Assembly: GCF_004324835.1 (NCBI RefSeq)
Contig: NW_021163311.1
Coordinates: forward strand, 10,208-74,207
Direction of reading: 5' to 3'
DNA length: 64,000 nt
DNA from: Dendronephthya gigantea
Taxonomy: Eukaryota
In this document: positions 10,790-22,430 of the stretch, piece after piece
How positions within the stretch are numbered: position 1 is the first letter of the stretch
How the letters are laid out: every line of letters begins with the position of its first letter
Notes under the pieces: model-generated
Seen by the model: only the letters and a program-made list of their open reading frames with translations
Told to the model about the DNA's origin: nothing
The model's database searches: none
Program-made: the position numbers and the translations under genes

Positions 10790-11050
10790 TGCTCACAGAT
10801 TGTTTTGTAATTTCACGTTTTCCATCGCGTCCTTGAAGGCTTTTAGTACAAGATTTACATTATCTTTTGTACTGTTCAACCCCATCAGACCAACACGCCA
10901 TATCTGAAAAATTTCACCACAAAAAGTAGGGTTTTTCAAAGGGAAAAAATTTACGATTATGGAGTGAATATCTGCGAATATAGAGAAGAAAATTGTGAAT
11001 ATGAATACCTTTCCAGCAGAGCTTCCAAGAACACCTGAAATATCCATTTT
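10790..11050 (-). pseudogene. AGXT: Co-amplified copy of AGXT exons 9-10 and the intron between them (coding still intact)
   Basis: Minus strand encodes YKMDISG(V)LG(S)SAGK | [36 protein letters not shown], matching the genuine AGXT 3' exons at 33039-33292. Confidence 0.6.
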
Positions 11051-11129
11051 ATATCTGAAAATGAAATTGATTATTCAATTTTAACACTCTCTATGAATGA
11101 CCGCCCTGCAAGTCTTAAAAATGCCACTA

Positions 11130-12065
11130 TTGGCAAGATAGGGCAAGATAGAAGAAAACACAAGAAAAGTAAGAAATAGACCAAGTGGTGATAAGGAAAA
11201 TATAATTGTTGCTGGAGGTTTAGGAATTAACTCTGTAGAGATGTTTAACTGGCGTCAAAGAACATGGTCGCCATTACAATCAATGCCAAAGGATCGTGAA
11301 GGAGCGACTTCATTTATTTATAACAATCATATGACTATAGCTGGGGGTGACTGTGGTGGGTCTGACATTGTTGATGATATGATTAGAATGAATATTGACC
11401 CAAACCCTGATCTCTCAACACACTGGAGTGGCTGTCCTGTTAAACTACCTGATAAGTTGAGATTCCACAGCAGTGTGCTGTATAATGATCAGTTGATAGT
11501 CTCTGGAGGTGAAAAGAGAAAAGTTTCATCTGACTTGATCAGAGCAGTCCAGCTTGTTCCTCCCTATACTGCGAAGACCTTATCAAGAATGCCAGAACCA
11601 AGACAAGGTCACAGCATGGAAATATTTGATGATAATTTGTTGATAGTTGGTGGAAAAACAACTGACACTCTCAAAGACAACCTCAGCAGTGTCGTACTGT
11701 ATGATGTAAAGAAGAATGAGCTGAAACAGTTGTCACCACTCCCGTATGAAGTGAGTCACATGGCAACTGTGAGATGGGGAGACAACATTGTTGTTATTGG
11801 TGGAATTGACAAACAATGCAAGACATTAGATACAGTTGTCATTTACAATGTCAAGACAGAACAAAGTCACATGCTGCCATCAATGAGATTTAAGAGGTGG
11901 GGATGTACTGCAGTTGTTATTGAAAACAACATTGTAGTCCTGGGAGGGTATGGTGAGGTAGGAAAGCTGAAGTCAGTTGAAGGTTTCAACTTTGAAAGGT
12001 TATCTTGGGAAGAACTTCCAGAAATGTCTAAATCAAGATGGTGGCCCACTGCTGTTGCTGTGTGA
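11130..12065 (+). pseudogene. 5'-truncated RING-TRAF-Kelch copy 3 (Kelch half only)
   Basis: Homology begins mid-gene at ..gaagaaaacacaagaaaagtaagaaatagaccaagtggtgataaggaaaat.., which encodes ..EENTRKVRNRPSGDKENIIVAGG. The spacer hairpin sequence ..gccactattggcaag is fused directly to the gene at the shared ggcaag (microhomology deletion). The RING and TRAF parts are absent. Confidence 0.8.
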
Positions 12066-12334
12066 ACAATATGTAAGGTATTAAGTGAAAACGCCTAACA
12101 TATTATGAACAATTGAAATGAACTATCACATTTTTGACAAAGTTATAGAAATAGATTGCAGCATTCTAAGTTGATTGTGAGACATATACTGATTTGTATT
12201 TTTGTTTTTGAATTTAAATTGTGTCAGTTCTTAGGATTATATATTAAAGAACAATAACAAATCTTTGAAATAGATATTTTCATTGAGGAAGGTTTAAAAT
12301 GAAACACAAAATAAAACATTTGAAATAATATTTT

Positions 12335-12540
12335 CTGCACCCCCTCCACCTAGGTTTTTCACCACCACCCCCTTCCTCCTAGGTTTTTCACCCCCTCCCT
12401 CCCACAGTTTTTTTCACACCCCTCCTATCACCTAGGTTTGCACTCCCCCCTCCCACCTAGGTTTTCTCAGCCACAACCCCTCCCCTCCCCACCTGGGTTC
12501 TTCTGCCCCAGTTCCCCAGACCAAGAATCTTAACTGAGCC
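12335..12540. repeat. C-rich 3'-flank tandem repeat (longer version)
   Basis: ccctccacctaggtttttcac-type units. Confidence 0.6.
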
Positions 12541-12756
12541 TCTGCCTCAAGAAATAGCTCAGTTACCTATTTTAAATATCAGCCTGTCTGTAAATGATGT
12601 CTGTGTCTGTCAGACTGCCACAAACCAAGTCATATTTTAAAATTTAACAATTAACAAGATTTGGAGAGATAGTTTTACTCTTTATTAAAACAAAACCCTG
12701 ATTAACTAATATAAATTGGTTTGTCAAATAAAATAAAATTCTTGTTTCAAGTTTGC

Positions 12757-13012
12757 TCACAGATTGTTTTGTAATTTCACGTTTTCCATCGCGTCCTTGA
12801 AGGCTTTTAGTACAAGATTTACATTATCTTTTGTACTGTTCAACCCCATCAAACCAACACGTCATATCTGAAACATTTCACCACAAAAAGTAAGGCTTTT
12901 CACCGGGAAAAATTTACGATTATAGAGCGAATATCTGCGAATATGGAGAAGAAAATTGTGAATATGGATACCTTTCAAGCAGATCTTCCAAGACCACCTG
13001 AATTATCCATTT
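12757..13012 (-). pseudogene. AGXT: AGXT exon 9-10 derived fragment, copy B (nonsense mutation)
   Basis: The exon-10-like segment reads cag|ATA TGA CGT. TGG has become TGA within IWRVGL. Confidence 0.55.
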
Positions 13013-19867: not shown

Positions 19868-20003
19868 ACAAAGTAAAATACTAAAGTAGGTCACATCTGG
19901 GTGCATTGCAAGCTAATGGGTTAACAAGAGACACTGACAGATAGTTTTGTTAACTTATTAACTGACAGTACTCTTCCACTGATGAGTAAAATCATCTGAC
20001 ACG
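19868..20003. repeat. 136-bp satellite monomer upstream of gene 5
   Basis: As at 14905-15040. Confidence 0.7.
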
Positions 20004-20266
20004 ATTAGGAAAATACAAACTATTTCTTGGTATAAAGTATCTTTTTCTTCGAACTTATTTCCATATAATGAAATAAGAAATTCCTTCCAACATAAACACA
20101 ACCAATTGCAAGTCAGCATTTGAATAGAAGATGCTGAGCTTTTGTCAGGAGACAATAATAATAATATAATTTTTTTATATCACGAATTCCTGTCCACAAA
20201 ACACTCCTTAAACACTTACGGAAGAGATATTTCTCTGCTGTTCTAAACAGATAATTTTGCCGTAAC

Positions 20267-20405
20267 GATTTGAGAAAATACAAACACAGACTTCTTCAAG
20301 AACGAACACTGTATGTATTTCAGTCTATACAGCGAGGTTTATACTACAGAGCGACAAACAACACAGAACTTGCTTTATTATTCCGACATAAGAACGACGT
20401 GAAAT
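20267..20405 (+). promoter_or_regulatory. Conserved leader of gene 5 (type B)
   Basis: Identical to the gene-4 upstream. Confidence 0.5.
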
Positions 20406-22040
20406 ATGGCTTCATATATACAAGGCTACGATGAAGAACGCTTCGAGACCAAAGTCAGTAAAAATTTCCTTTGTCAGATTTGCTTCAACGTCTTGAAAGA
20501 GCCTGTCCTGTGTCCGACAAACCAACATTGTTTTTGCCGTTGTTGTATTACGAAACATCTGGAAAATTCTCAAACATGTCCAACGTGTGCTGATGAACTG
20601 ACCGTAGAGACTTTGGGCGAACCCCAAAGAATTGTAAAAGATCTTATAAACGAGTTAAAAATTCGTTGCGTTTACATCGACAGAGGTTGTCAAGAGGTTG
20701 TGGAATTACAGCATCTTGACCGCCATGAAGATACATGTGGATACACACCAGCCGTTTGTACAAACCAAGGCTGTGGTTTAATTGTCAACAAGCGTGATCT
20801 TATTCACCATGAAAGTGAAGTCTGTGAATTCCGAAAGTTGAAGTGTCACTCGTGCGGAGAAATGACGAAAACTTTGGCAGATATGGAGGAAAAAATGGCG
20901 AAGAATAATGTAAATATTGAAACTAAAATAACAAATTTAGAGAAAAACGTTGCTACTTTTGCGAATGATATGGAGAAAAACACCGCAGATATAAAAGCAG
21001 ATATAAAAGCAGATATGGAAGGAAAACTCGAAGCGGTTAACAACGAAGTCAAAGGATTGAAAACAGCTTTGGTCAAAGCTTTTGATGAAATGAAGGACGT
21101 TCTTATCACGATGGAGGGCAAGAAAGAAGAAAACACAAGAAAAGTAAGAAATAGACCAAGTGGTGATAAGGAAAATATAATTGTTGCTGGAGATGTAGCA
21201 ACTAACTCTGTAGAGATATTTAACTGGCGCCAAAGAACATGGTCGCCATTACAATCAATGCCAGAGGATCGTTATGGAGCAACTTCATTTACTTATAACA
21301 ATCATATGACTATAGCTGGGGGTTGGTGTGGTGTGTCTGTCATTGCTGATGATATGATTAGAATGAATATTGACCCAAACCCTGATCTCTCAACACACTG
21401 GAGTGACTGTCCTGTTAAACTACCTGATAAATTAATATTCCACAGCAGTGTGCTGTATAATGATCAGTTGATAGTCTCTGGAGGTGATAATGGAAATGGT
21501 TTATCTGACTTGATCAGATCAGTCCAGCTTGTTCCTCCCTATACTGTGAAGACCTTAACAAGAATGCCAGAACCAAGACAAGGTCACAGCATGGAAATAT
21601 TTGATGATAATTTGGTGATAGTTGGTGGAAGTACAATTAGCAGTTACAAAGGCAACCTCAGCAGTGTCGTACTGTACGATATAAAGAAGAATGAGCTGAG
21701 ACAGTTGTCACCACTGCCGTATGAGGTGAGTCTCATGGCAACTGTGAGATGGGGAGACAACATTGTTGTTATTGGTGGCTTTGACAAATATGGCAAATTA
21801 CTAGATACAGTTATCATTTACAATGTCAAGACAGGACAAAGTCACATGCTGCCATCAATGAGATGTAAGAGGAGGGGATGTACTGCAGTTGTTATTGAAA
21901 ACAACATTGTAGTCCTGGGAGGGGAGAGTGAGCAAGCAATGCTAACATCAGTTGAAGGTTTCAACTTTGAAAGGTATTCTTGGGAAGAACTTCCAGAAAT
22001 GTCTGAAGCAAGATTGTGGCACACTGCTGTTGTTGTGTGA
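20406..22040 (+). CDS. RING-TRAF-Kelch protein, copy 5 (544 aa)
   Basis: Intact ORF. Codons 1 to ~300 are identical to copy 4. The Kelch half has diverged. Confidence 0.9.
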   Translation: MASYIQGYDEERFETKVSKNFLCQICFNVLKEPVLCPTNQHCFCRCCITKHLENSQTCPTCADELTVETLGEPQRIVKDLINELKIRCVYIDRGCQEVVELQHLDRHEDTCGYTPAVCTNQGCGLIVNKRDLIHHESEVCEFRKLKCHSCGEMTKTLADMEEKMAKNNVNIETKITNLEKNVATFANDMEKNTADIKADIKADMEGKLEAVNNEVKGLKTALVKAFDEMKDVLITMEGKKEENTRKVRNRPSGDKENIIVAGDVATNSVEIFNWRQRTWSPLQSMPEDRYGATSFTYNNHMTIAGGWCGVSVIADDMIRMNIDPNPDLSTHWSDCPVKLPDKLIFHSSVLYNDQLIVSGGDNGNGLSDLIRSVQLVPPYTVKTLTRMPEPRQGHSMEIFDDNLVIVGGSTISSYKGNLSSVVLYDIKKNELRQLSPLPYEVSLMATVRWGDNIVVIGGFDKYGKLLDTVIIYNVKTGQSHMLPSMRCKRRGCTAVVIENNIVVLGGESEQAMLTSVEGFNFERYSWEELPEMSEARLWHTAVVV

Positions 22041-22234
22041 ACAATATGTGAGGCATTAAGCACTTGAAAACTCCTAACATATTATGAACAATTGAAATGA
22101 ATTATAAGATTTCCACAAAGTTATAGAAATAGATTGTACCATTCTAAGTTGATTGTCAGACATATACTGATTTGTATTTTTGTGATTTAATTTAAATTGA
22201 GTCAGATCTTGGAATTATATATTAAAGAACAATA

Positions 22235-22430
22235 ACAAAACAGACCAACACGCCATATCTGAAAAATTTCACGACAAAAAGTACAGTTTTTCACAGGGAA
22301 AAAATTTACGATTATGGAGCGAATATCTGCGAATATGGAGAAGAAAATTGTGAATATGGATACCTTTCCAGCAGATCTTCCAAGACCACCTGAAATATCC
22401 ATTTTATATCTGAAAAAAAATTTGATTATT
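22235..22430 (-). pseudogene. AGXT: AGXT-derived fragment, copy D (exon 9 retained, exon 10 mostly deleted)
   Basis: ..aacaataacaaa|acagaccaacacgccatatctgaaaaatttcac.. The 3' UTR of gene 5 is joined inside the exon-10-like segment. The exon-9-like part reads [13 protein letters not shown]. Confidence 0.5.

Follow-up and report, generated by a model that had tools for sequence, protein, structure and literature searches.

Recurrent fragments of the 3' end of AGXT within a tandem array of RING/Kelch genes in the coral Dendronephthya gigantea

Introduction

How does the tail of one gene come to stand, over and over, behind the members of a neighbouring gene array? The question is raised by a 64,000-nucleotide stretch of the Dendronephthya gigantea genome (NCBI RefSeq assembly GCF_004324835.1, contig NW_021163311.1, positions 10,208 to 74,207 of the forward strand), hereafter the window, in whose own coordinates all positions below are given. 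This eukaryotic DNA (G+C ~37%) contains an array of seven gene copies, all on the plus strand and arranged head-to-tail with a repeat unit of ~5 kb, whose intronless coding sequences specify a RING (C3HC4) domain, a TRAF/Sina zinc finger, a coiled coil and a Kelch propeller. The last copy is convergent with an intact AGXT gene, encoding an alanine-glyoxylate / serine-pyruvate aminotransferase. A preliminary description of the window, made by reading the sequence, had noted that the last two exons of AGXT recur along the array and are decaying independently, and had proposed that the array grew by unequal crossing-over of a unit that included them. We find that the fragments very probably go back to a single capture, made where a duplication boundary fell in AGXT intron 8; the fragment-bearing unit would then have been amplified, the fragments decaying neutrally.

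Copies of the AGXT tail in the array

The real 3' end of AGXT, on the minus strand, consists of exon 10 (33039-33149; 111 nt, i.e., 36 codons and the stop) and exon 9 (33247-33292; 46 nt). Its stop codon lies 597 bp from that of array gene 7 (32442), so that position, convergent orientation and exon numbering are as previously described. A BLASTN search of the 64-kb window with 32981-33340 revealed five further matches, located after gene 2 (10736-11091, 91.9% identity, E 5e-149), gene 3 (12700-13062, 90.1%, E 5e-143), gene 4 (17651-18001, 91.9%, E 3e-145), gene 5 (22241-22454, 88.4%, E 2e-77) and gene 6 (27913-27957, a 45-nt relic of 95.6% identity, E 2e-15). All five lie on one strand and in one relative position behind the preceding array gene. 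The block formed by exon 9, the intron and exon 10 is therefore confirmed after genes 2, 3, 4 and 5, and the similarity of the full copies to the real exons, until now judged by eye, is highly significant (90.1-91.9% identity, E <= 5e-143).

The statement that the block accompanies every array unit is nevertheless too strong: five of the six non-terminal units carry it or its relic, and unit 1 does not. No AGXT fragment was found behind gene 1, where homology to the other units stops at 4862, at the start of a low-complexity stretch. Exons 1 to 8 of AGXT were not detected by tblastn with the full protein outside the real gene within the window, and Rfam and tRNA scans of the whole window returned nothing.

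The recurring stretch is larger than the two exons. In unit 7, the distal part shared with other units spans 32443-33346 and includes the gene-7 3' flank, a low-complexity stretch, intergenic DNA, the AGXT 3' untranslated region (3'UTR), exon 10, intron 9, exon 9 and 54 nt of intron 8. The homology breaks off at ~33346-33350, bordering on a 114-bp minisatellite. The units are colinear from the stop of the array gene into the AGXT tail, across 0.6 kb of intergenic DNA, and intron 9 is retained in all full copies. Such retention of an intron and of native flanks excludes retroposition. Past ~33346-33350, the real intron 8 consists of the minisatellite, while in the fragments a segment here called X follows, and after it comes the region upstream of the next array gene. 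X is ~350 bp long with nested hairpins (13072-13421; also at 18001-18334, 22464-22812 and 27967-28295), and the intron-8 piece meets it at the identical nucleotide in units 3, 4, 5 and 6; its first 45 nt also follow the gene-2 copy (11089-11135). No homology to X was found in the real AGXT intron or in the rest of the window, and X may represent either the original proximal flank or a mobile element. Colinear flanks and a shared junction thus establish that the AGXT 3' end belonged to the amplified unit, as had been proposed.

Lesions and neutral decay

Disabling lesions (stops, a frameshift, deletions) are present in four of the five copies, all of which are read on the minus strand. The exception is the fragment after gene 2 (10715-11088), composed of 3'UTR (10715-10792), exon 10 (10793-10903), intron 9 (10904-11008), exon 9 (11009-11054) and then the intron-8 piece. 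It is free of stops and frameshifts and its splice sites are intact; exon 9 differs by G>V (11031) and R>S (11021) and exon 10 by one synonymous change. We also observed that the retained intron 9 of this copy does not close the reading frame, so that an open stretch of 87 codons (10796-11056) extends from exon 9 as far as the stop, probably by chance. A 17-bp deletion in its intron-8 piece is common to the fragment after gene 4. The latter (17630-18000; exon 10 at 17708-17818, exon 9 at 17920-17964) has an unchanged exon 10 translation and a frameshifting 1-nt deletion in exon 9, at about 17932/17933. Following the truncated gene 3, the fragment at 12679-13071 (exon 10 at 12757-12867, exon 9 at 12972-13017) bears two premature stops, TGG>TGA in exon 10 (12862) and GGA>TGA in exon 9 (12977), together with Y>H and I>N replacements. 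Only the first of these stops appeared in the preliminary description, whose other lesions (one intact copy, a 1-nt deletion, loss of most of an exon 10) we recovered as listed.

The two remaining copies are largely deleted. After gene 5 (22241-22463), an exon 9 identical to the real exon (22364-22409), intron 9 and ~18 nt of exon 10 are left. A deletion of ~620 bp (22239/22241 join) took most of exon 10, the AGXT 3'UTR and most of the gene-5 3' flank, so that this flank is now joined to the interior of exon 10. After gene 6, the relic (27913-27966) is reduced to 54 nt of AGXT intron 8 and ends exactly at the former exon-9 acceptor AG. There, a 229-bp element (27684-27912) replaces ~555 bp, the equivalent of 32738-33292. 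This element had been called a miniature inverted-repeat transposable element (MITE). It does carry 26-nt inverted arms (27688-27713 / 27865-27890, 85% complementary), the right arm ending 22 nt inside the element, its body is weakly palindromic throughout, and a second, diverged copy occurs at 61752-61924 (70% identity over 181 nt) with the right terminus ...CAACCGGCCCCTG in common. No target-site duplication is visible, since the insertion coincides with a deletion. It thus seems reasonable to call this repeated element MITE-like, strict terminal repeats and a target-site duplication not being demonstrable; that it replaced the block, leaving only the intron-8 relic, is clear.

A 510-column ungapped alignment was used to compare the real copy with the fragments that are complete, those after genes 2, 3 and 4. 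The fragments carry 6, 11 and 8 private substitutions, of which 8 of 25 fall in former exons and 17 outside, close to the expected exon fraction of 0.306 (p = 0.83). Six of the eight exonic changes are nonsynonymous or nonsense and two are synonymous, to which the frameshifting 1-nt deletion is added. By contrast, none of the 14 substitutions private to the real copy lies in an exon (p = 0.006; Fisher's test of real copy versus fragments, p = 0.034). Fragments that show no exon deficit, next to a gene that avoids exonic change, fit the pattern expected of dead copies decaying neutrally beside a constrained parent. Together with the private lesions of each copy, this pattern upholds the earlier view that the copies decay independently. 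As also described earlier, the genuine 3' end is the one continuous with the remainder of AGXT.

Could the fragments nonetheless be functional, providing AGXT with alternative 3'-terminal exons or acting on the array genes as antisense or regulatory elements? The open gene-2 copy with its splice sites and the AATAAA signal kept in all full copies would fit such a role, as would another D. gigantea AGXT locus (see below) for which RefSeq gives isoforms differing only at residue 363, inside the last exon. However, two copies contain a stop or a frameshift and two are largely deleted, and the private substitutions show no exon deficit and a 6:2 ratio of nonsynonymous to synonymous changes. Moreover, it is the copies closest to the real gene, those behind genes 6 and 5, that are destroyed, while the intact one lies ~22 kb downstream of AGXT, beyond five antisense genes, and RefSeq lists a single isoform for the AGXT gene of the window. 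We therefore regard a function of the fragments as very unlikely.

A probable single capture

Were the fragments acquired once or repeatedly? In the same alignment, the real copy is distinguished by its 14 private substitutions and by three private indels (2, 10-11 and 4 nt), and at each of these sites the fragments agree with one another. Two further states are common to the fragments after genes 3 and 5. Since the fragments also share the X junction, which is missing in the real gene, a single capture of the AGXT tail is indicated, with subsequent amplification of the unit that bore it.

Under the alternative, each unit would have budded when the terminal unit was duplicated afresh along with the real AGXT tail, and the fragments would be independent copies of the functional gene. 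This scenario likewise predicts a fragment at the same place in the units, and the gene-5 copy of exon 9, identical to the real exon, agrees with it. It is at odds with the 14 substitutions and three indels at which the fragments concur against the real copy and with a junction that the real intron lacks; furthermore, the longest private branch is that of the real copy, where budding would have made it the sister of the youngest fragment. Repeated budding is consequently very unlikely as well.

Mosaic units

The preliminary description had proposed that the fragments provide an internal clock for unit ages. This use had to be abandoned, as had any use of the fragments as a tree of the units. 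The tree of the aligned copies is short and nearly star-like, its three fragment branches (6, 11 and 8 substitutions) being statistically indistinguishable, and the signals conflict: the grouping of units that quartet-informative sites favour varies between the coding sequence, the 3' flank and the AGXT block. Sliding windows revealed that the divergence between units shifts abruptly along the unit. For example, the AGXT blocks after genes 2 and 4 differ by 2-3% while the coding sequences of these genes differ by 9%. Similarly, units 4 and 5 show just three differing positions over 1.26 kb covering the promoter and the 5' coding half (15040-16300 versus 20003-21265), one of them being the loss of a G at 15733, while their 3' halves differ by 6-10%. 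Such near-identity points to gene conversion or unequal exchange in the recent past, although an error of assembly or in a homopolymer is also possible. The units are thus mosaics produced by recombination or gene conversion, and because of this mosaicism and of the short branches, unit ages cannot be read from the fragments.

The near-identity of units 4 and 5 also bears on the possibility that the copies are mis-assembled reads or haplotigs of a single locus. The D. gigantea genome is highly heterozygous and its assembly PacBio-based (PMC6447388), and exons 2 and 3 of AGXT are identically doubled in the window (see below). Yet an artefact would be expected to yield near-identical copies, whereas the fragments are 2-9% apart, have diverged flanks and differ by indels, by the 620-bp deletion and by the element insertion, each peculiar to its copy. 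An artefactual origin of the fragments is accordingly most improbable.

Junctions and proposed history of the array

One junction departs from the others. At 11125-11150, X is interrupted at about its position 45 and joined to the interior of an array gene, with a duplicated GGCAAGATAG at the 11135/11140 junction, which creates the 5'-truncated gene 3. The sequence indicates that this truncation would result from a microhomology-mediated deletion of about 3 kb. Another feature of the units is a C-rich repeat of ~20 nt (CCCCTCCACCTAGGTTTTT-like), present in ~2 to 6 copies per unit at 32681-32790 and, equivalently, at 10450-10545, 12360-12510, 17370-17455 and 27640-27683. It marks the point where unit-1 homology stops and where the unit-6 replacement starts, and it may be a fragile or recombinogenic site. 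Two insertions between X and the upstream region were also observed, each confined to one unit: a 161-bp element with 45-nt inverted termini (91% complementary) in unit 7 (28290-28450), and a 488-bp insertion without obvious inverted repeats in unit 6 (22813-23299).

The hairpin-rich X found at every junction, as well as the MITE-like elements and the 138-bp satellite common to the units and the AGXT introns, could bring to mind a Helitron- or Pack-MULE-like transposon that carried the RING/Kelch gene, took up the AGXT tail and inserted repeatedly, but we rejected such a capture as extremely unlikely: the units stand strictly head-to-tail beside the donor gene with fully colinear native intergenic DNA, neither unit termini such as terminal inverted repeats nor target-site duplications bound them, and X has no copy elsewhere in the window.

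The single boundary capture would then have unfolded as follows. A tandem segmental duplication of the RING/TRAF/Kelch gene would have had its distal breakpoint in intron 8 of the convergent AGXT gene, at ~33346, so that the duplicated unit of ~5 kb took along the 3' flank of the array gene and the AGXT 3'UTR, exon 10, intron 9, exon 9 and 54 nt of intron 8. After this one capture, the fragment-bearing unit would have multiplied head-to-tail, most simply via unequal crossing-over between units, and the intact AGXT would have remained with the last unit only. The internal copies, devoid of promoter and exons 1 to 8, would since evolve neutrally as unprocessed partial pseudogenes, acquiring the stops, the frameshift, the 620-bp deletion and the deletion filled by the MITE-like element. 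Later recombination or gene conversion between units and microhomology-mediated deletion would have reshuffled the array. The copies with their boundaries, lesions and common junction, the neutral pattern and the mosaicism are demonstrated; the order of these events and the part played by unequal crossing-over are what we infer. The proposal that the array grew by unequal crossing-over is reasonable for the amplification steps, given the identical junction of units 3 to 6 and the mosaic similarity between units. It does not extend to the first, boundary-setting duplication, which is not shown to have been homologous, nor is it the sole route, the 11135/11140 junction being microhomology-mediated.

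Several observations weigh against this history. Unit 1 lacks a fragment, which was thus either lost or never present in an array of more than one origin, and units 1 and 2 have a different upstream region. The gene-2 copy is still open with intact splice sites. The single-base deletions in exon 9 of the gene-4 fragment and in gene 4 itself (15733) could be errors of long-read assembly. Finally, the 3'UTR and exon 10 differ among the fragments by 1.6-2.6% as against about 5-7% in the adjacent non-coding DNA; though based on small numbers, this difference could stem from gene conversion acting locally instead of from neutral decay alone.

The parent AGXT gene and a second AGXT locus

The intact AGXT gene occupies 33039-39971 on the minus strand, with 10 exons, introns that are all GT-AG and a product of 383 amino acids. 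The modelled product is identical to the D. gigantea RefSeq protein XP_028417267.1 ("serine--pyruvate aminotransferase, mitochondrial-like"). A phmmer search of the PDB matched residues 3-376 to AGT, SPT and HKT structures with E values of 1e-117 to 1e-124, human AGT (1H0C) scoring 1e-117 and mosquito HKT (2CH1) 1e-124, and PF00266 (Aminotran_5) was detected on the N-terminal part.

A second D. gigantea AGXT gene, on a contig of 375,850 bp, is represented by XP_028415290.1 and XP_028415292.1. In exon 1 (39971-39644), the AGXT of the window lacks six residues, TKNKMT, just before the SGTGH motif. TKNKMT is kept in the second AGXT, and an 85%-identical homologue reads TKNRHT at this place. E51A and K141E further distinguish the two D. 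gigantea proteins. Given the high heterozygosity of this genome (PMC6447388), the second locus may be the other haplotype of the window locus, or else a paralogue. Residue 363 (N/K) is the one difference between its isoforms X1 and X2. As this residue is inside the last exon, two intact copies of the terminal exon are implied at that locus, alternatively spliced in the annotation. This single-residue difference hints that amplified AGXT tails, where intact and near enough, might be spliced as an alternative terminal exon pair giving variant C-termini. In addition, recombination between fragments and gene might render AGXT and the immune-type array unstable in copy number, like the human RCCX module described below. 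We consider this an outside chance.

The AGXT gene has further peculiarities. Exons 2 and 3 are duplicated within the gene with 100% identity (38791-38727 / 38634-38534 and 37780-37716 / 37623-37523), as part of a 1011-bp higher-order repeat (36824-39483; 97.8% identity overall) of a 138-bp satellite. Both exons total 166 nt, so that the use of both pairs would shift the frame, and the RefSeq protein uses one pair. The doubling may be a real exon duplication or an assembly artefact. Introns 8, 6, 5 and 1-3 consist mostly of minisatellites with units of 114, 77, 80 and 138 bp, respectively (33361-33731, 34026-35089, 35886-36439 and 36694-39509); in introns 5 and 6 at least, ~15-45 nt separate them from the 3' splice site downstream. 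Copies of the 138-bp satellite are likewise found upstream of array genes: four at 24807-25362, single monomers at 14911-15056, 19874-20019 and 30016-30140, and an inverted one at 5147-5303.

The array genes and their surroundings

The seven array genes are located at 2958-4598 (gene 1, 546 amino acids), 8546-10156 (gene 2, 536), 11140-12065 (gene 3), 15444-17074 (gene 4), 20406-22040 (gene 5, 544), 25746-27380 (gene 6, 544) and 30844-32442 (gene 7, 532). The truncated gene 3 keeps only the Kelch part, in an open reading frame at 11241-12065. Gene 4 is frameshifted by the missing G at 15733, its 5' half being otherwise near-identical to that of gene 5. The frames of genes 1, 2, 5, 6 and 7 stay open. 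A polyadenylation signal AATAAA is found ~200 bp past the stop of the array genes. As this signal precedes the AGXT fragment, the fragments probably lie outside the array-gene mRNAs.

The family of the array proteins is large, with >1400 homologues in the protein collection, the species-named matches all coming from the gorgonian octocoral Paramuricea clavata. The closest database match is only 76-77% identical, while the neighbouring AGXT is an exact RefSeq protein. The seven array genes consequently appear to be absent from the public annotation of this genome. A literature search for octocoral RING/Kelch expansions turned up nothing specific.

Among genes 1, 2, 5, 6 and 7, the pairwise ratio of nonsynonymous to synonymous substitution rates (dN/dS) is ~1.2 for the Kelch propeller (range 0.76-2.1), 0.56 for the coiled coil and 0.29 for the RING/TRAF zinc finger part. 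The Kelch values are consistent with diversifying selection or with relaxed constraint on a putative substrate-binding domain. In this respect, the AGXT fragments offer a neutral yardstick within the unit: Kelch domains evolve at or above the neutral rate and the RING/TRAF part is constrained.

Beyond AGXT, a second tandem array was observed at 42099-60474, with a period of ~4.15 kb and at least four units of 90-97% identity. Each unit contains four small open reading frames (~106-150 amino acids, on both strands) with hydrophobic, signal-peptide-like N-termini. Related single open reading frames occur at 40999-41433 and 62221-62805.

Comparison with known systems

The closest described analogue of this arrangement is the RCCX module (STK19-C4-CYP21-TNX) of the human major histocompatibility complex class III region, in which TNXA is a truncated pseudogene of TNXB located on the opposite strand and convergent with CYP21 (PMC8362596). 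RCCX units also carry STK19B, which comprises 914 bases of the 3' end of STK19, and they are reshuffled by unequal crossover and gene conversion (PMC8362596). As in the coral array, the tail of a convergent neighbour is repeated in the units and the intact gene adjoins the last unit only. Nevertheless, the coral unit is much smaller (~5 kb versus ~30 kb) and the fragment is present in at least five copies instead of one to three. Unlike in RCCX, the coral units captured two exons only, and the fragment lies 0.6 kb from the array gene without overlapping it. This analogy draws on the literature for RCCX and on a single assembly for the coral. By analogy with the damage that TNXA does to TNXB in humans, the fragments could serve as substrates for non-allelic recombination that would damage AGXT. 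They can also mislead gene prediction into spurious AGXT exons or isoforms.

Tandem gene duplication is pervasive in coral genomes (PMC10236652), and the array, a lineage-specific tandem expansion within a much-expanded family, fits this cnidarian picture. That study, mainly of scleractinians, makes no mention of Kelch, RING, TRAF, pseudogenes or gene fragments. Mutation-accumulation lines routinely reveal duplicated segments that include whole genes, parts of genes or both (PMC3857721).

Judged by their sequence, the fragments are a textbook case of unprocessed partial pseudogenes, left by genomic duplication at a duplication boundary: they keep the intron and native flanks, miss the promoter and the 5' exons, and display lesions and a neutral pattern of substitution. 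Nothing in them is conceptually new, as they are an ordinary by-product of tandem duplication with a boundary inside a neighbouring gene. They do provide a clean natural marker of how the array was built, by one boundary-setting duplication and then by whole-unit amplification. Compared with ordinary boundary pseudogenes, nothing essential differs; the peculiarity of this locus is that the boundary fragment was multiplied along with the unit.

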